5,473 nt of DNA. Source: a virus (Duplodnaviria > Heunggongvirae > Uroviricota > Caudoviricetes). Under the pieces are notes generated by a model. That model saw only the letters and a list, made by a program, of their open reading frames with translations. It made no database searches and was not told the origin of the DNA. Shown here in pieces: positions 1-5,473 of the stretch. Each line of letters starts with the position of its first letter. Positions within the stretch are counted from its first letter, which is position 1. The stretch lies in IMG/VR virus record IMGVR_UViG_2778261058_000013, one strand, 5' to 3'. The translations under genes were made by a program, and so were the position numbers.

Positions 1-1401
1 CAGGCGGACAAGCTGCCCCGCCTTGACTTTTATCCCCTCCGTTTTGAGGAATGTCTCAACGTCCATTTCTCCGGTGCTGATTGCCACCGTGCGCCAGTGT
101 TTGATCTCCCTGTTGCCGCCGTCCTTTGCCCCCTGTAATTTCCCGGAACCGTTAAACAGCGTATAGGCTGACGTGGACACCTCCCGCGCGTTTCCGGCCT
201 GGCCTATTTCATCCAGGGGTAAAAGCCCGTCATTGTGTGCCTCTGCTTCGTTGGCGATACCTAACGCTGTGCCGTACCAGGTCAGCCGCTGCGCGTCCGG
301 CTCTCCCCATAAACTTGATGCGATGTTCTGCGTTGTGGTCTTACCTGCCGATGACTGTTCGAAAAGATGTACCCCGAAGCCGTCAGCGCCCACCAGCCCG
401 ATTAATGGTGCAGATAACGATACCGCCACACCCAGCATCATGGACGGATTACCACCAGCCAGCCGCGCAACGGTATCGCGCCAGCCCTCCGCCGTTCCTG
501 CCACGGAATAACCATTAACAGCAGCCGTTTTTCCGGTAAACAGGACTGGCTTTTCGCAATCACCAATGACCGAACCGTCCGGCATGATGTACGCGCCAAA
601 ATGCCAGCCCGTTGTTGTGCTTAACTGCCATTCCTCATGGTTTCCGCTTAACTGCATCCAGTCAGCCAGGATAGCCCTGTATTTGCCGTTGGTTGTCACG
701 TTCAGGCCGTGGTCTTTCAGCAACCGCCAGCCGTCACGGTCGCCAATGCCCCCGCACGGAACCGCCATTGTGATGACTTCATGGTTTGCGGGTTTCTTCC
801 AGCGCATCACGCGGTAATGCTCTTTGCCGATTGTCCCCGTTCCCAGTAGTTCAAGCGGGGAACATAACCACGTCTCAGGCCGGATAATTTCGCCTGACTG
901 CTTGTCAACTTTTGGCGTTACCCAGAAAACACCATCGGCGCGGCTTTCAACGCGGGGCTTTAATTCATCATCGCTATAGCTTCCTGTGGCTTTTTTCTTT
1001 AAGGGCAACACCAGACTTTCCCCGCGCTCGTATTCGTCTTTCAGTCGGGCAAGCTGTGGTGTCCAGTCCTCCAGTAAATCGCCGTTCTCGTCACAAAAAC
1101 AGGCTTCCTTAACACCAGCCACTGCCAGCAGGGTTTCAATCTGTAGCGCCAGTTTGTCATCCAGTTTTCCGGCACGTCTGACGATGGCGCGTGACCGACC
1201 CTCATCCACAATACGCAGGTTTTCCAGATTACCCAGGTCACGCCGTCCGAGATAAACAGGTGGTATTTTGTCGCCGCGCTTTCTGGCTTCTCCGCCCTGC
1301 ATGTAATGCTCTGCGTGGCTGTATGCGTCATCCCCCGCAAAAATCACTGCATCCTCGCCTTTATCTTTCGGTAACAGTTTTACGTTCGGCGCCAGTTTCA
1401 T
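1..1401 (-). CDS. Replication protein, primase/helicase-like with a P-loop NTPase domain (possibly DUF927/toprim-type); 3'-partial, continues beyond position 1
   Basis: The minus strand frame from 1401 to 1 has no stop codon (467 codons, checked by hand); it is absent from the ORF track because no stop falls in the window. ATG 1401..1399 overlaps the stop of the upstream gene (ATGA), with GGGGAAAGG just upstream. Translation begins MKLAPNVKLLPKDKGEDAVIFAGDDAYSHAEHYMQGGEARKRGDK and contains a Walker A-like SSAGKTT (about 334..354) and Walker B-like LLPLDEIG (about 202..225). The plus-strand ORFs across this span are antisense shadows. Confidence 0.8.
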   Translation of the reverse strand, partial: MKLAPNVKLLPKDKGEDAVIFAGDDAYSHAEHYMQGGEARKRGDKIPPVYLGRRDLGNLENLRIVDEGRSRAIVRRAGKLDDKLALQIETLLAVAGVKEACFCDENGDLLEDWTPQLARLKDEYERGESLVLPLKKKATGSYSDDELKPRVESRADGVFWVTPKVDKQSGEIIRPETWLCSPLELLGTGTIGKEHYRVMRWKKPANHEVITMAVPCGGIGDRDGWRLLKDHGLNVTTNGKYRAILADWMQLSGNHEEWQLSTTTGWHFGAYIMPDGSVIGDCEKPVLFTGKTAAVNGYSVAGTAEGWRDTVARLAGGNPSMMLGVAVSLSAPLIGLVGADGFGVHLFEQSSAGKTTTQNIASSLWGEPDAQRLTWYGTALGIANEAEAHNDGLLPLDEIGQAGNAREVSTSAYTLFNGSGKLQGAKDGGNREIKHWRTVAISTGEMDVETFLKTEGIKVKAGQLVRL

Positions 1402-1712
1402 TTTGCCTTTCCCCGTTCACGAATAATTTCACGTACTGCCTTAATGCGTTCCATACCTGTAACGCGCATGATTCTGTCGATGTCGCTTAAGTTCGCTGGT
1501 GGTGCTTTGCTTACCAGGGTGAATTCACTCTCAAAACGCATATGAGACGACACGCAGGGATGCGCATAACCTTCGCGGATATAAGTCACGCGAAAATCGT
1601 CAACGGTTTTTATCGTTATTCGTCCGCCGTATTTATCTTTGAAAATATCGTCGGGGCGGATTTCAGGCCGAGGGAGGCCGCTGGCAGTAAAGCCAGAATT
1701 TTTCTTTTTCAT
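1398..1712 (-). CDS. Hypothetical protein (104 aa), translationally coupled to the downstream primase-like gene
   Basis: ORF-track ORF with ATG at 1712..1710 preceded by GAGGAA and an 8-nt spacer; starts MKKK; its TGA stop overlaps the primase ATG (ATGA at 1398..1401). No family recognised. Confidence 0.6.
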   Translation of the reverse strand: MKKKNSGFTASGLPRPEIRPDDIFKDKYGGRITIKTVDDFRVTYIREGYAHPCVSSHMRFESEFTLVSKAPPANLSDIDRIMRVTGMERIKAVREIIRERGKAK

Positions 1713-1782
1713 GGTTTTTATTCCTCTGCGCGGGTCTTGTCGTGCATTTCCATAACCGCGTTTAATTCATCAATAACCGGGG

Positions 1783-1926
1783 TTAACAGAGTGCTGAAAG
1801 CAGAAAGTAAATACCCCCCCGCTCGGTGTTATTTTCGGTTAATTCATCCAGTACCGTTTTTAATTCAAGCGCCCTGATTAATGCATTCTCAGAATGAATA
1901 AGAACATCGAAAGGGATTTTATCCAT
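1783..1926 (-). CDS. Hypothetical small protein (47 aa as written), possibly frameshift-truncated at a G7 tract; one extra G would give 79 aa ending at 1718
   Basis: ATG 1926..1924 preceded by GGAGGA with an 8-nt spacer; translation MDKIPFDVLIHSENALIRALELKTVLDELTENNTERGGIYFLLSALC. A C7 run at 1814..1820 (G7 on the coding strand) lies inside the ORF. Below the ORF-track length cut-off. Confidence 0.35.
   Translation of the reverse strand: MDKIPFDVLIHSENALIRALELKTVLDELTENNTERGGIYFLLSALC
1814..1820 (-). repeat. Homopolymeric G7 tract (C7 on plus strand) inside a small ORF
   Basis: Read directly: ataCCCCCCCgctcgg on the plus strand. Confidence 0.95.
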
Positions 1927-2152
1927 GGCTTACATCCTCCGGGAATTTTCTTCTGTAACGCGCCTCTGCAACATATTCCGCATAGTCCGACGCAATATTG
2001 AGAATCTCCACACCCTCTGACCTGTAGCCACTGGTACTGATAAGAAAAAATGCGGCTTTCATCATGTCGGCAACGCATAACAACGCATCGCCTGTATGTT
2101 CCGGTGCGCCATCAAATTCCTGTTTCAGGGCATTAAAACGATCATCACGCAT
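1919..2152 (-). CDS. Hypothetical protein (77 aa from ATG 2152; the ORF-track frame extends to 2179); may be the C-terminal part of a fused roughly 155-aa protein
   Basis: Frame open 2179..1919. ATG at 2152..2150 sits 2 nt downstream of the G8 tract, which could act as a G-rich ribosome-binding site, and overlaps the TGA of the upstream ORF. Translation MRDDRFNALKQEFDGAPEHTGDALL...EDVSHG. Start choice is uncertain. Confidence 0.4.
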   Translation of the reverse strand: MRDDRFNALKQEFDGAPEHTGDALLCVADMMKAAFFLISTSGYRSEGVEILNIASDYAEYVAEARYRRKFPEDVSHG

Positions 2153-2384
2153 AACCCCCCCCATTTTCACAATCAGCAATCAGGATGGCTTTAGCCTCAT
2201 TCAGTGCCATATCAGCACTAAATTGCATAACAGCCAGTGAGTGAGGAACGAAAGCCCCGGCATATTCTGTTTCGCTGGTGGCGTGCTTATGTGCCCTGTC
2301 CGCGATAACAGAAATATCAATCAGCGCGTGCATTAGCGTTTTGATGGCTTCGGCGGCTGCGTCCGGCGTGTTTTTATTGCACAT
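2145..2384 (-). CDS. Hypothetical protein (79 aa)
   Basis: ORF-track ORF; ATG 2384..2382 preceded by AGGGGG with a 6-nt spacer and overlapping the 3' end of the upstream 68-aa ORF; translation MCNKNTPDAAAEAIKTLMHALIDISVIADRAHKH...CENGGGYA, ending just after the G8 tract. Confidence 0.5.
   Translation of the reverse strand: MCNKNTPDAAAEAIKTLMHALIDISVIADRAHKHATSETEYAGAFVPHSLAVMQFSADMALNEAKAILIADCENGGGYA
2155..2162 (-). repeat. Homopolymeric G8 tract (C8 on plus strand) at the junction of two small ORFs
   Basis: Read directly: ataaCCCCCCCCatttt on the plus strand; on the coding strand it encodes the GGG near the C-terminus of the 79-aa ORF. Confidence 0.95.
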
Positions 2385-2580
2385 GGTGCACCCCCTGGCG
2401 AATACGGGCGGCGAATACCATCACGCAGCCAGCCGGTGATTGCTGACGGGCTTCCTGTTCGCTGGTGGCCTCAATGGTAATCATGCGCGGTTGTGCCGTG
2501 CTCAGAGCGATAAAACGCCAGATATATTTATTCAGGTTGTGCGAGTCCCGCCCTTGCGGGTGTGTGGTATGATTTAACAT
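2374..2580 (-). CDS. Hypothetical protein (68 aa), first gene of the minus-strand small-ORF operon
   Basis: Internal ATG at 2580..2578 of the long ORF-track frame 2374..3492, preceded by GAGGT with a 5-nt spacer; translation MLNHTTHPQGRDSHNLNKYIWRFIALSTAQPRMITIEATSEQEARQQSPAGCVMVFAARIRQGVHHVQ. The longer upstream extension is rejected. Confidence 0.45.
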   Translation of the reverse strand: MLNHTTHPQGRDSHNLNKYIWRFIALSTAQPRMITIEATSEQEARQQSPAGCVMVFAARIRQGVHHVQ

Positions 2581-2676
2581 AGCTACCTCGATACTGTTGC
2601 TATCGTTGGTGGTTAGAAGCCCCGTTACTGCTCCTACAGTGCGGGGTTTCGTCGTTTCTGTGCCTTGCATTAACAA

Positions 2677-2759
2677 GGTGTAAGACACAATGTAAAATAC
2701 AAGTGTCTTACACGTCAAGCCTTCAAAATAATTTTTTTTCGTGTATATTGTCTTACACC
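2677..2759. promoter_or_regulatory. Divergent promoter region with three copies of a 12-bp operator-like motif (core TGTCTTACAC)
   Basis: GGTGTAAGACAC at 2677..2688 (inverted) and GTGTCTTACACG at 2703..2714 form a palindrome with a 14-bp spacer; a third copy TTGTCTTACACC lies at 2748..2759. On the plus strand a putative -35 TTCAAA (2722..2727) and -10 TATATT (2744..2749) are 16 bp apart; on the minus strand a putative -35 TTGACG (2718..2713) is followed by TACATT. A T8 run sits at 2732..2739. Confidence 0.5.
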
Positions 2760-2779
2760 AACAACATAAGGAGTTAGAC

Positions 2780-2959
2780 ATGGCAACAGGTCCAAAGAAT
2801 GCAAAATCACAATCTGTAACTGCACGTATTGCCCATGAAATTATTGAAGGCATGGAAAACGTGAAAGAAGAAGGCGAAAGTACAGGGCAGTTTATAAGTG
2901 CAGCCATGCGCGGCGAGATCAAACGCCGCCAGCGTCGCAAGGCCAAAGAGCAGGAGTAA
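2780..2959 (+). CDS. Small basic protein (59 aa), possible ribbon-helix-helix-type DNA-binding regulator
   Basis: ATG at 2780 preceded by a consensus AAGGAG (2768..2773) with a 6-nt spacer; translation MATGPKNAKSQSVTARIAHEIIEGMENVKEEGESTGQFISAAMRGEIKRRQRRKAKEQE. The ORF-track start at GTG 2741 lies inside the promoter and is less likely. The RHH assignment is a guess from the N-terminal pattern. Confidence 0.6.
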   Translation: MATGPKNAKSQSVTARIAHEIIEGMENVKEEGESTGQFISAAMRGEIKRRQRRKAKEQE

Positions 2960-3016
2960 CCATCACTAGCGCCGTGGAGTGATGAACTGTGGCGCACAGG
3001 GTTACAGGTATATACG

Positions 3017-3214
3017 ATGACTGACAAATCATTAAAGAAATTATCCTCATCCAGGAAAAAACAACGCAAAAATGCGGTAAGCGAACAAGAACAGGAAAGA
3101 TTCGCACCTTGTTCGTTTGCTCTTGAGAAATTCCTTAAAGAGTACAGGCGCACAAAAATGGGATCGCATGCCTGGAAAACATCGCAGCATGGCGATACTA
3201 AAGAGCAGGAATAG
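3017..3214 (+). CDS. Hypothetical small basic protein (65 aa)
   Basis: ORF-track ORF; ATG 3017 with a weak AGGT 7 nt upstream; lysine/arginine-rich N-terminus; same strand as and immediately downstream of the 2780..2959 gene. Confidence 0.4.
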   Translation: MTDKSLKKLSSSRKKQRKNAVSEQEQERFAPCSFALEKFLKEYRRTKMGSHAWKTSQHGDTKEQE

Positions 3215-3317
3215 CCCACCAGCAAGCCAGCACACTGATCACATTGCCCACCAGCCGCAAATGTGGCATTGTTGGCTATGCTCATGCGTTGGGGATAACG
3301 TGTAGCTTGTGTCGAGG

Positions 3318-3346
3318 GGCCACCGTAGCGGGTGGCCTTTGTTTTG
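3318..3346 (+). terminator. Rho-independent terminator for the plus-strand small-gene pair
   Basis: Perfect 7-bp stem GGCCACC (3318..3324) / GGTGGCC (3331..3337) with 6-nt loop GTAGCG, followed by TTTGTTTTG. Confidence 0.5.
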
Positions 3347-3362
3347 CCTGTTATCCGGCAAT

Positions 3363-3392
3363 TGTGGCGCTTCGCCACACGGTTGATATAAT
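3363..3392 (+). promoter_or_regulatory. Candidate promoter: perfect palindrome next to a consensus -10 hexamer
   Basis: 7-bp inverted repeat TGTGGCG (3363..3369) / CGCCACA (3373..3379) with loop CTT, followed by consensus TATAAT at 3387..3392; weak -35 TTGTGG at 3362..3367 with a 19-bp spacer. Confidence 0.3.
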
Positions 3393-3441
3393 TCCCCTGC
3401 ACTGATCCATTTTTTTCGCAGCAGGTTAATTGTTCGCAAGG

Positions 3442-3466
3442 GCGCTCCGGCAACGGGGCGCTTTTT
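3442..3466 (+). terminator. Rho-independent terminator-like hairpin on the plus strand
   Basis: Stem GCGCTCC (3442..3448) / GGGGCGC (3455..3461), seven pairs including one G-U wobble in RNA, loop GGCAAC, followed by TTTTTGTT. The minus strand has no U-tract after the stem. Confidence 0.45.
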
Positions 3467-3496
3467 GTTATGTTCATCGCGTTACGCCTCACACCA

Positions 3497-3703
3497 TTAC
3501 GCAGCCGTTCCGCGCGCTTCTTCCTCGCGCTCTTTCAGCCAGGCCAGCACTTCATCTTCATACCAGCCAACACGGCGCAGACCGATTTTGAAGCCTTTCG
3601 GGAATTTTCCGGCGTTGATCATGTCCTGTAGCGAACTGTCTGCCTTGATGCGCAGAATATTTTTTACTTCCTGACGGGTAAGAATTTTTCTGATTACTTC
3701 CAT
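3497..3703 (-). CDS. alpA: AlpA/Vis-family phage transcriptional regulator (excisionase-like helix-turn-helix protein)
   Basis: ORF-track ORF; ATG 3703..3701 preceded by GAGGT with an 8-nt spacer; translation MEVIRKILTRQEVKNILRIKADSSLQDMINAGKFPKGFKIGLRRVGWYEDEVLAWLKEREEEARGTAA has the size (68 aa) and pattern of the AlpA family, and the gene sits in the expected position beside the integrase. Confidence 0.85.
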   Translation of the reverse strand: MEVIRKILTRQEVKNILRIKADSSLQDMINAGKFPKGFKIGLRRVGWYEDEVLAWLKEREEEARGTAA

Positions 3704-3767
3704 CGTGTTTTACCTCGTTAATACGGCGTATTCCGGTGATAAATACGGTAAAACAGGGCAGGGCGGG

Positions 3768-3810
3768 AAAAACAGTACTCACCGTTTTAAAACGGTACTC
3801 ACTGTTTTTT
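3768..3810. promoter_or_regulatory. Two tandem 20-bp near-palindromic repeats upstream of alpA (candidate regulator-binding sites)
   Basis: AAAACAGTACTCACCGTTTT (3769..3788) and AAAACGGTACTCACTGTTTT (3789..3808), 18/20 identical; each unit has partial dyad symmetry (AAAACNGT...ACNGTTTT). A possible degenerate third copy lies near 3741..3760. Confidence 0.4.
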
Positions 3811-3835
3811 ATCTCATTGATTACGCTTTCTTTTT

Positions 3836-3868
3836 GCAAAAAAATAGCGACCGCAAGGGGCCGCTATT
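3836..3868 (-). terminator. Rho-independent terminator after the 80-aa ORF and integrase transcription unit
   Basis: Stem AATAGCG (3843..3849) / CGCTATT (3862..3868) with a GC-rich interior; on the minus strand the stem is followed by a U7 tract (A-run 3838..3844 on plus); begins 5 nt past the stop at 3873. Confidence 0.55.
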
Positions 3869-3872
3869 GTGA

Positions 3873-4115
3873 TTACCGTTTCCACTTCTTAGGTCGCCCA
3901 CCACATTTAAGGCTGGTGGGCCTCAGCACCTTGTCGATGCTTTCAGCCAGATTTTTCGATGCGCCACGCGAGCGTAAAAAACTGACTACCTCGTGTTTTG
4001 TGGGGGCTGTTGATTTGTCTTCCGGATCGTATGTTGACCAGAATTCACGATTTGCCATTAACGCCAGTTGCAGCCCTTCGCCGCAAGCAGGGGATACCTT
4101 TTCATTGAAAAACAC
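3873..4115 (-). CDS. Hypothetical small protein (80 aa) with a basic GRPKKWKR C-terminus, between the integrase and alpA
   Basis: ORF-track ORF with a GTG start at 4115..4113 preceded by a consensus AAGGAG (4129..4124) and an 8-nt spacer; an alternative internal ATG gives MANREFWSTYDPEDK. Translation ends ...LKCGGRPKKWKR. Confidence 0.5.
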   Translation of the reverse strand: MFFNEKVSPACGEGLQLALMANREFWSTYDPEDKSTAPTKHEVVSFLRSRGASKNLAESIDKVLRPTSLKCGGRPKKWKR

Positions 4116-4171
4116 CTGGATAGCTCCTTGAATTTCATGATTTGGGTGACTCCTCTCTGTATTGGGTGGGT

Positions 4172-4210
4172 TGTGGCGATTATACGATGGTTTAGCATGG
4201 TTTGCATCGC
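4172..4210 (-). promoter_or_regulatory. Candidate sigma70 promoter for the 80-aa ORF
   Basis: Consensus TATAAT on the minus strand (plus 4184..4179) with a weak -35 ATGCAA 17 bp upstream; lies in the 116-bp gap between the integrase stop and the ORF's ribosome-binding site. Confidence 0.3.
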
Positions 4211-4231
4211 TTTTACTGGTTTTTTGTACAG

Positions 4232-5473
4232 TTACACGGCACGGATACCCCTTTTACCACTGGCTATGGTCACTCCGGTAGCTGCGGCCTCTACAAATTC
4301 CCCCCACCAGCGCATAAGCACCACGCGCTTTTCCAGGTAGTTACTTCTGTTATATGCCCGCCTTACCTCGTTCGTGTCCACGTGTGCGAGTGCGGCCTCG
4401 ATTACGTCCGGCTCGAATCCTTCCTCGTTCGCTGCTGTACTGAATATGGCGCGTAATCCGTGAGACACCAGCACACCAGCGTATCCCATCCGGCGCAATG
4501 CAGCGTTAGCGGTCTGGCTGCTCATTGGCAGCATTGGATTTTTAAGGCTGGGAAAAACATGTTCCCTGTGTGCGCTGATTGGCTTCATGGTTTCCAGTAC
4601 AGCCATAGCCTGACCGCAAAGGGGGATCACGTGGTCACGGCGCATCTTCATGCGTCCGGCTGGAATCGTCCATGTTTCGGCATCGAGATCTATTTCTTCC
4701 CAGCGTGCGGCGGCTGCTTCGGCTGGGCGTGCTACGGTCAGCAGTTGCCACTCAATCAGCAATCTGGTTTGCCGTTCTATGCTGGCGACCGATAAATCGT
4801 GCATTAGCTGCGGTAGCTGTTCCGGTCGGATGGTTGGCATGTGCTTTTTGGTGGGTGAGGGGAATGCCTTGCGGACGTTCGCGGCGGTGTTGATGTCAAT
4901 CAGCCCACTGTTGGCAGCAAAATCCATCACTTCATTGATGCGTTGTAAAACGCGTTTCAGGGTTTCCAGGTTGCCGCGTGCTTTAATGGGGGTGAGTATC
5001 TCAACAAAGCGGCGAGCTGTGAGGGTATCTATTGGCGTGTTTCCGATGTACGGGAATACGTATTTTTCCAGGGATCGCCAGATATCCTTAATCGTGTTGT
5101 AAGCCAGATTCTGGCCTTTTTTCATCTCGTACCAGTCCGAGGCAACTTTTTCGAACGTGTTGCCCTTTTTCCGACTCTCTGCTTCACGTTTCCGGCGTTC
5201 GTGGTCCTGTGGGTCAACTCCCTTCGCTATGAGTGACCTGTATTCATTCCGTCGTTCTCTGGCATCGGACAGGGAAACATCATTCAGCGATCCGAGGCTG
5301 ATGATAGTCCGTTTTTTATCTGCCGGGCGGTAGTACGTAAAACGCCAGATTTTTGATCCGGAGGGTTTCACCAGAAGAAATAATCCTCCACCATCCTGCA
5401 GGGTGTATTCCTTTTCCCCTGGTCGTGCGTTTTTGATCTCCGTAATGGTTAGTGGGGTGGTTTTTCGTGCCAT
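4232..5473 (-). CDS. int: Site-specific tyrosine recombinase, P4-type phage integrase (413 aa, complete)
   Basis: ORF-track ORF; ATG at the window edge (5473..5471). The N-terminus MARKTTPLTITEIKNARPGEKEYTLQDGGGLFLLVKPSGSKIWRFTYY is typical of the arm-binding domain of P4-like integrases; the C-terminal domain has the HxLR motif (VSHGLRAIF) and a catalytic-Tyr context (RRAYNRSNYLEKR). Confidence 0.95.
   Translation of the reverse strand: MARKTTPLTITEIKNARPGEKEYTLQDGGGLFLLVKPSGSKIWRFTYYRPADKKRTIISLGSLNDVSLSDARERRNEYRSLIAKGVDPQDHERRKREAESRKKGNTFEKVASDWYEMKKGQNLAYNTIKDIWRSLEKYVFPYIGNTPIDTLTARRFVEILTPIKARGNLETLKRVLQRINEVMDFAANSGLIDINTAANVRKAFPSPTKKHMPTIRPEQLPQLMHDLSVASIERQTRLLIEWQLLTVARPAEAAAARWEEIDLDAETWTIPAGRMKMRRDHVIPLCGQAMAVLETMKPISAHREHVFPSLKNPMLPMSSQTANAALRRMGYAGVLVSHGLRAIFSTAANEEGFEPDVIEAALAHVDTNEVRRAYNRSNYLEKRVVLMRWWGEFVEAAATGVTIASGKRGIRAV

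Follow-up and report, generated by a model that had tools for sequence, protein, structure and literature searches.

A 5.5-kb viral sequence as the probable integration, regulation and replication half of an EcCICFT073-type phage-inducible island of Escherichia coli

EcCICFT073, a phage-inducible chromosomal island (PICI) of E. coli, needs int, alpA and pri-rep, is induced by a helper phage, and uses AlpA as an autoactivating activator (PMC6092414). Its genes c1499 and c1500 encode capsid and decoration homologues (PMC6092414), and c1503 encodes RppA (PMC6739421). In EcCIMP1 of E. coli MP1, whose helper is phage Kapi1, alpA lies just downstream of int, is needed for excision and is induced only upon helper induction (PMC11773190). 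Whether enterobacterial PICIs have a resident repressor was left open by the founding paper. Here, we analyzed a stretch of 5,473 nucleotides (nt) of viral DNA, IMG/VR record IMGVR_UViG_2778261058_000013, which we refer to at its full length as the window. Our analysis makes it highly probable that the window covers the half of an EcCICFT073-type Gram-negative PICI that serves integration, regulation and replication; the island most probably lies at the 3′ end of proL, the tRNA-Pro(GGG) gene next to yejM in E. coli. It adds a further mosaic island to a family that is already well known.

Gene order and chromosomal site

The window contains 11 open reading frames (ORFs), all intact and with coupled start and stop codons according to the ORF list and its translations. 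Combining this list with family scans gave the minus-strand order int, ORF80, alpA, an Icd-like gene, ORF79, ORF77, ORF47, a DUF4222 gene and a DUF927-family rep. Thus int, alpA and rep share one strand with int at one end, the arrangement by which a PICI is recognized, and the layout fits the scheme of an integration zone, a dynamic zone and a replication zone (PMC10111431). The initial annotation had proposed integrase, small ORF, alpA, regulatory region, small-ORF operon and primase-like gene; each of these parts is present at sensible coordinates, but the "regulatory region", ~900 nt between alpA and the Icd-like operon, is not empty and holds two plus-strand ORFs, a YlcI/YnfO-like gene and ORF65.

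We located EcCICFT073 at NC_004431 1377930-1388654, between roxA and phoQ, and compared it with the window. It shows the same order, namely int, alpA, a reverse ORF, a reverse YlcI/YnfO gene, an Icd-like gene, small ORFs, DUF4222 and a replicase, and 9 of the 11 window proteins have collinear homologues there, in the same order and orientation, which places the gene order beyond chance. Identity was highest for the Icd-like protein (98%), followed by the YlcI/YnfO-like protein (73%), ORF65 (64%, in the same place), ORF77 (54%), ORF79 (52%), DUF4222 (51%), the N-terminal region of Rep (28%) and Int (25%); AlpA gave a short match only, 60% over 25 amino acids (aa). Both islands also share a three-box control region and leader hairpins. 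They differ in the integrase, the AlpA allele, the replicase (D5_N/DUF5906/Pox_D5 in EcCICFT073, DUF927 in the window) and ORF80, which has no homologue in EcCICFT073. Whereas EcCICFT073 is attached in the roxA-phoQ region, the relatives of the window are attached at proL tRNA-Pro. Beyond the replicase, EcCICFT073 carries SSB, PerC, capsid c1499, decoration c1500 and a 144-aa helix-turn-helix (HTH) protein of RppA length and position, whereas the closest relatives of the window carry ProQ, two PerC and small terminase (TerS)-like genes rather than capsid E/D homologues and Rpp. EcCIMP1 resembles the window by description, with int, alpA, an Ash/antirepressor zone, a primase-helicase, PerC-family cargo and no identifiable capsid genes, but its site is between proA and yagU, and it encodes a further alpA-like excisionase (PMC11773190).

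The window ends precisely at the int start codon (5473) and contains no tRNA or attachment (att) site, as the initial annotation had foreseen in placing att, packaging and cargo genes outside it. In relatives, a tRNA-Pro(GGG) gene was found by ARAGORN ~210 bp beyond the int start in 14/14 loci with this integrase, eight of which encode an identical Int. The identical Int is present in thousands of assemblies and lies 360 bp from yejM in 8/8 places read. The closest genome, NZ_CP054662, is 98.9% identical over 1-1722 and 2527-5473, and its counterpart of the window forms the right end of a 14.4-kb island between yejO and tRNA-Pro/yejM, a length within the ~10-15 kb expected of Gram-negative PICIs. 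An att core, GCACGAGAG, occurs at both island ends, ~14.4 kb apart; the tRNA 3′ end, GCACGAGAGGATTTGAACC, is imperfectly repeated ~14.4 kb away as GCACGAGAGTATTCAAAAC, a distal copy that is degenerate outside a 9-nt core. Arm-type GTAGCTA repeats lie near both ends of the island, so that att and arm repeats bound it in this genome. In locus L001, we observed four GTAGCTA copies between int and tRNA-Pro (25848-25925) and one matching 16-mer at the far end (11700-11720).

Directly after the replicase stop codon, the closest relative, whose Rep is 98.9% identical over the part present in the window, has an origin-like array in which over 10 GT(C/T)GTCCCA iterons, pointing both ways, surround an AT-rich stretch. 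An iteron origin after rep is found in PICIs in general (PMC6092414), and that of EcCICFT073 has the same layout with different iterons. Past rep, the NZ_CP054662 island continues from these iterons with a small ORF, SSB, ProQ/FinO, PerC, a DUF1441/TerS-like gene, a Nu1-type TerS and a second PerC; the DUF1441 protein is grouped by PHROGs with small terminases. No tail, lysis, portal, large-terminase or capsid-assembly genes were found in this island from tRNA-Pro to yejO, and no tail, lysis or full head modules in the 10 kb downstream of int in the eight loci with the identical Int. A full prophage with tail and lysis genes at this site was not seen in the loci of the relatives. By SatelliteFinder logic (PMC10085698), the closest relative would be classed from its genes as type B, with int, alpA, pri-rep and terS and no capsid gene.

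Packaging and defense genes beyond position 1 were observed across the relatives, including TerS types, lambda E/D capsid homologues, an Rpp-sized protein and sometimes AbiD and Panacea. Islands that encode the identical Int differ in their replicase, which is of one of three unrelated types (DUF927, D5_N/DUF5906/Pox_D5 or AAA_25; L002-L009), and in their late module, of which at least three were seen, with capsid E/D homologues, with a Clp-protease-capsid fusion or with ProQ-PerC-TerS. The initial annotation had also suggested anti-phage cargo further along; this was found in three relatives, and for the window's own copy we infer it. In one of them (L012, 17860-20072; also L015 and L019), an AbiD gene (PADLOC E 4e-62), a gene for a SocA_Panacea-domain protein and a partner ORF lie by the distal att end. 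Judged by their families, the AbiD and Panacea genes would be defense or toxin-antitoxin cargo. Among the five window ORFs scanned (ORF80, ORF79, ORF77, DUF4222 and ORF65), PADLOC reported no defense gene.

Window DNA was matched in E. coli chromosomes only; of 5,426 complete genomes, 1,825 contain parts of it and 87 contain int at ≥95% identity. When ORF77 was read as 86 aa, no record was retrieved; its 77-aa reading and Int occur in many places, none identical over the entire window. PICIs at other att sites share the exact ORF77 protein, as do prophage-embedded elements and elements that carry a full head module.

Control region of the replication operon

Between the two divergent transcription units, we identified a control region (2678-2758) with a promoter and three operator-like boxes flanked by GTGT and ACAC. 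To its plus-strand side lies the YlcI/YnfO-like gene (2780-2959, 59 aa; translation might instead begin at an upstream GTG, at 2741), divergent from the replication operon and followed by the co-oriented ORF65 (3017-3214), which encodes a small basic protein (PHROG 21027, E 1.7e-43). The minus-strand promoter of the replication operon is sigma-70-like, with a -35 element TTGACG at 2718-2713 and a -10 element TACATT at 2694-2689, and was called by position and conservation. Box 1 (2748-2758) overlaps the plus-strand -10 element of the YlcI/YnfO gene, box 2 (2703-2713) directly follows the minus-strand -35 element, and box 3 (2678-2688) directly follows the minus-strand -10 element.

Across loci, the three boxes hold fixed offsets, and their sequences vary jointly with the residues of the N-terminal strand of the YlcI/YnfO protein in seven allele types. 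The window, L010 and L012 combine the strand KSQSVTARIA with the box GTGTAAGACAC; L013, L014 and L017 combine KSQTVAARVP with GTGTTYAACAC; L004 has KSQKLQARAP and STGGAWTCCAS; and L019 and EcCICFT073 have KSQALKARVP and GTGGRCCACAC. In the Salmonella locus L023, KSQMTTVRIP goes with GTGTATTTCA, in L025 and L026 KSKKLEARVP goes with GTGGCTGACACC, and in the Citrobacter locus L027 KSLQVSVRLP goes with GTGGTGTTCACC. The pair GTGTAAGACAC and GTGGCTGACAC exemplifies how boxes differ between allele types. In each locus read, whether from E. coli, Salmonella or Citrobacter, the YlcI/YnfO gene occupies the same slot of an int-alpA-rep island, and the protein family spans Enterobacterales genera.

The structure model of the YlcI/YnfO protein (predicted local distance difference test score, pLDDT, 87.7) shows an extended N-terminus and two helices. 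It is thus predicted to adopt a ribbon-helix-helix (RHH) fold, with an N-terminal strand, two helices and a fold match to solved RHH proteins. Neither the Pfam RHH families nor any PDB chain matched it in sequence, and the hhalign comparison with CopG was not significant. In this lack of a sequence-level match the protein differs from the RHH repressors Arc, omega, CopG and the antitoxin domains, and its DNA binding is a prediction; like Arc and omega, which act on short repeated operator boxes at promoters, it is accompanied by such boxes at its promoters.

The covariation of boxes and strand argues for the YlcI/YnfO protein as a candidate island repressor with its operators, and it is a candidate for repressing both the replication operon and itself. 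We tentatively propose, at somewhat less than even confidence, that it is the missing resident repressor of enterobacterial PICIs, a counterpart of Stl, with allele-specific boxes, an antisense override driven by AlpA and a leader as second check. While Stl is the master repressor in Gram-positive PICIs, the island of the window would employ a pair consisting of AlpA and the RHH protein. With allele-specific boxes, "immunity" would be specific to the island type. In a literature search of incomplete coverage, no paper was found that gives YlcI/YnfO a repressor role.

Downstream of the promoter, the replication operon begins with a structured 5′ leader (2585-2649, minus strand) in three parts. 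In hairpin 1 (2649-2617), six of eight pairs are kept through double, compensatory changes; the tail CUUCUAACCACCAAC is invariant; and hairpin 2 (2610-2585), also invariant, pairs with part of the icd Shine-Dalgarno sequence. The leader occupies the same place in all 21 PICI loci examined, of which ~5 independent sequence types support the structure, and it matched no Rfam family. It would add a second, RNA-level check on the operon. Scanning the whole window against Rfam (E up to 1) and 2520-2760 more permissively (E up to 10) returned only chance matches to miRNA and CRISPR-repeat families.

On the plus strand, two hairpins that resemble terminators, at 3315-3340 and 3438-3465, would stop ylcI-ORF65 transcription short of alpA. 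On the minus strand, the terminator scan found no strong terminator after alpA, so alpA transcripts can run antisense through ylcI-ORF65 into the replication operon. These features suggest that AlpA-driven transcripts bypass the repressed promoter by antisense read-through.

The same interval holds a 386-codon open frame (3534-2374, minus strand) that extends from the end of alpA to the icd stop codon, antisense to both plus-strand ORFs, and reads as 372 aa from a GTG at 3492. This frame recalls the nesting of vis, eta and kil in P4. Such frames, 385-615 codons in length, remain open in 10 of 15 variants; the other five are of the L002 type, and EcCICFT073 likewise has none. We considered the frame as a translated spacer like P4 eta but kept it as an observation, not as a gene: it has no family match outside its Icd part, is cysteine-rich and is lacking in EcCICFT073. 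Its third codon positions fall on those of the plus-strand genes, which makes it the antisense frame likeliest to stay open by chance.

In other islands, the zone around these genes is variable. In the Salmonella locus L023 (6336-8088), genes of the TumE and HVO_A0114 families come after the RHH gene, and alpA is followed by a gene for an AntA antirepressor. The variable zone possibly also carries toxin-antitoxin or anti-repressor cargo, as in this locus.

Integration and replication modules

The integrase gene (5473-4232, minus strand) encodes 413 aa with the Pfam domains Arm-DNA-bind_3, Phage_int_M and Phage_integrase and matches NCBIfam PRK09692 (E 3e-168); the catalytic residues R249, K276, H338, R341, H364 and Y374 are all present. 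By sequence, Int is a tyrosine integrase of the P4/CP4-57 type with an arm-binding domain, predicted to target the 3′ end of tRNA-Pro(GGG) (proL) beside yejM. ORF80 follows (4115-3873, minus strand, 80 aa) with a GTG start, an AAGGAG Shine-Dalgarno sequence 8 nt before it and a basic C-terminal tail; RefSeq gives it as 61 aa from an ATG at 4058, and in the loci of relatives it is called as 76-80 aa. It has no match in Pfam, NCBIfam, PHROGs or PADLOC. A terminator-like hairpin of 10 pairs with a T-run (3868-3843, minus strand; tail TTTTTGCAAA) ends the int-ORF80 transcription unit.

The next gene, alpA (3703-3497, minus strand), encodes a 68-aa MerR-like HTH regulator (Pfam Phage_AlpA, E 4.5e-8) that carries the PHROG label "excisionase and transcriptional regulator" and occupies the alpA slot of EcCICFT073. 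By analogy with related PICIs, in which AlpA is the activator of the island cycle, it probably plays this role here; in EcCICFT073, overexpressing alpA has been seen to cause helper-independent replication and a growth defect. Two tandem 18-nt repeats, AACRGTGAGTACYGTTTT, lie at 3769-3806 on the minus strand, 66-105 nt upstream of the alpA ATG, where two matches compare with 0.01 expected by chance. Because AlpA autoactivates in EcCICFT073 (PMC6092414), the repeats are a candidate activator site, either for AlpA autoregulation or for a helper-encoded inducer.

Where the integration module meets the variable control module, there is a 21-nt motif, GCCCACCAGCCGCAAATGTGG (3246-3266). An inverted copy at 3901-3921, inside the 3′ end of ORF80, is complementary to it at 19 of 21 positions; this second copy was found in the window, L001 and L011. 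The motif, as CCACATTTnnGGCTGGTGGGC, is kept in 18 of 28 loci, including EcCICFT073 (L022, 15214-15234) and islands with other or unrelated integrases. Moreover, the BLAST blocks of nine relatives break at 3244, coinciding with the motif, which may be a recombination or binding site.

The first gene of the replication operon is Icd-like (2580-2374, minus strand; 68 aa from an ATG at 2580; NF033153, E 6e-20). Searched against a phage collection, its product gave a single match, to a 16.5-kb induced element, and none to P4. ORF79 (2384-2145), ORF77 (2152-1919) and ORF47 (1926-1783) follow on the same strand, with overlapping stop and start codons; for these three ORFs together, PHROGs 2512, 5146 and 24341 are listed. 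The DUF4222 gene (1712-1398, minus strand; 104 aa; Pfam E 7.6e-18) is coupled to rep by an ATGA overlap, and a DUF4222 gene precedes each replicase type seen, DUF927, D5-type and AAA_25.

The rep gene (1401-1, minus strand) runs off the window at position 1, leaving the N-terminal 467 of ~710 aa (Pfam DUF927, E 3e-46). Its product contains a Walker A motif at G353-K354-T355 and a Walker B motif at D397-E398, and a PDB sequence search retrieved 8tch (E 4e-11) and the helicase Cch (5dgk) of the staphylococcal cassette SCCmec. The Walker motifs, together with sequence and fold matches to solved members, the Rep of Staphylococcus aureus pathogenicity islands (SaPIs) and Cch, are those of a DUF927 replicative helicase. 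Compared with SaPI Rep and Cch, to which identity is ~14% (8tch, 5dgk), the window Rep has an extra N-terminal Toprim-like domain and a coupled DUF4222 gene upstream. Since the overall model of full-length Rep is poor (pLDDT 56.6), we interpreted only its N-terminal domain and DUF927 core. Residues 1-130 (window 1012-1401) are modeled confidently as alternating strands and helices, a Toprim-like alpha/beta arrangement. Toprim domains are expected to carry the motifs EGxxD and DxDxAG. At the corresponding places, the family consensus reads IIFAGxDA and YRAGEL, without the acidic catalytic motifs, and Pfam Toprim gave no match in Rep. We therefore read Rep, from its sequence, as a probable initiator helicase of the SaPI-Rep/Cch type with a degenerate Toprim-like N-terminus; this domain may be an inactivated primase relic, and primase activity of Rep appears doubtful. 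Thus, the gene that the initial annotation had called primase-like is a replication gene in the expected place, but it lacks a Pfam-detectable primase domain and belongs with the DUF927 helicases.

Alternative readings and a proposed island cycle

Three other readings of the window were weighed. The first is that it stems from a decayed, immobile remnant or a generic integrative island, its primase-helicase serving another lifestyle, so that the likeness to a satellite is merely historical. In its favor, the closest relative has an Ash-family gene marked as a pseudogene in RefSeq, int, alpA and pri alone are too little for a PICI call by SatelliteFinder (PMC10085698), and the window has no Ash/Bro gene, which is found in many relatives. 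However, Ash is missing from the L010-type control region as well, so that a region without it represents an allele rather than decay. All eleven ORFs are intact with coupled start and stop codons; the promoter, the leader and the operator boxes likewise show no damage and agree with their counterparts in islands from other genera; and the relatives retain att repeats, an origin and TerS genes. We consider this reading unlikely.

Slightly less probable still is that the early half seen in the window comes from a PICI that forms its own capsids, or from one inside a helper prophage, instead of from a classical tRNA-site PICI. The exact ORF77 and DNA of 88-90% identity (1/672-3469) are shared by elements that also possess capsid, protease, portal, connector, HNH, TerS and large terminase (TerL) genes, and the same ORF77/DNA block occurs in elements between prophage terminase and tail genes (L013, L014, L017). 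These elements carry another integrase (407 aa), two AlpA genes and Bro-N, however, and the int-ORF80-alpA block of the window (3244-5473) was seen only beside tRNA-Pro/yejM. Furthermore, the islands that combine the same int with a DUF927 Rep of ≥93% identity all carry SSB-ProQ-PerC and TerS-like genes, without portal or TerL. The shared segment, control region plus small-ORF operon, belongs to the elements at L013 6182-19537, L014 6183-12000 and L017 6183-17893, which either have a full head module (capsid-forming) or are placed between a prophage small terminase and tail genes (helper-embedded).

The initial annotation had named P4-like satellites and Gram-negative phage-inducible islands together; synteny with EcCICFT073 bears out the latter, whereas P4 markers are absent from the related loci. 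A P4-like satellite would depend on a P2-type helper, control capsid size through psu-delta-sid and use immunity by CI RNA. Int and the Vis/AlpA-type HTH protein are the sole window proteins that match P4 (NC_001609), Int at 33% identity to P4 Int and AlpA at 35% over 37 aa to Vis, but both types are common to PICIs and do not discriminate. Other likenesses are a weak alignment of the Icd-like C-terminus to the end of the P4 "cI" ORF product (E 0.086), a match of the Ash-family ORF of some relatives to the P4 "cI" ORF, the long open frame from the end of alpA, as for P4 eta after vis (PMC10111431), and a layout in which a control zone with a nested small ORF follows the regulator and precedes small ORFs and a replicase. 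Against these, a six-frame search (E 1e-3) for the products of P4 sid, delta, psu, epsilon, gop, beta, cII, orf106 and orf151 found nothing in the window or in 27 related loci; for the region beyond position 1, this result is that of the relatives. P4 alpha combines a Zn-ribbon, Toprim and D5_N/DUF5906/Pox_D5, whereas Pfam recognizes DUF927 alone in the window Rep, and BLASTP against alpha gave nothing significant. The P4 int is separated by attP from vis-alpha and sits at the far end from them; in the window, int forms one block with alpA and rep. C4/isrK, the Rfam family of CI RNA, had no match, even at E up to 10 in 2520-2760, which leaves a P4/P1-type immunity RNA unsupported. Because P4 markers are absent from the relatives, Rep has DUF927 only and int is placed differently, the block is of the PICI type, and the P4 reading is very improbable.

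Several points nevertheless count against reading the window as half of an EcCICFT073-type PICI or against parts of that reading. The evidence on att, tRNA, origin and cargo stems from relatives, the window being 5.5 kb without its own flanks. Given the strong mosaicism, the late module, and even the functionality, of this particular copy is not readable from relatives, and the window was not recovered in full at high identity from any genome, the best match covering 94%. Three promoters were predicted in the window against 5.7 expected in shuffled sequence; the promoter calls thus rest on position and conservation. Since EcCICFT073 lacks the long frame, translation-coupled read-through is not general. 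Finally, we infer rather than observe the repressor role of the RHH protein, the binding of AlpA to the 18-nt repeats and the read-through from alpA.

Taking the window as part of an EcCICFT073-type PICI, we propose the following cycle. Int, expressed from the int-ORF80 unit with its own terminator, would integrate and excise the island. In the resting state, the RHH protein YlcI/YnfO on the three boxes would cover the -35/spacer, the +1 region and its own promoter, keeping replication silent. A helper phage would turn on alpA, and AlpA would boost its own promoter, possibly via the two 18-nt repeats. The alpA transcripts would then run antisense through ylcI-ORF65 into the replication operon, which once expressed would yield the Icd-like protein, the small ORF products, DUF4222 and the DUF927 Rep helicase. 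Rep would bind the iterons just downstream of its own gene, beyond the window, and replicate the excised circle, and late genes past position 1, TerS-like and others, would divert helper capsids for packaging.

PICIs of this architecture have been catalogued by the thousands in Enterobacteriaceae, and the finding itself is ordinary. For annotation, its value lies in assigning the block to a satellite, neither a prophage remnant nor P4, in recognizing the "DNA primase" as a Rep helicase, and in reading "YlcI/YnfO" as a probable RHH regulator. The control region could matter more: its covarying pair of operators and candidate repressor, present in EcCICFT073 as well, makes it directly testable how Gram-negative PICIs are kept silent and then woken by a helper.

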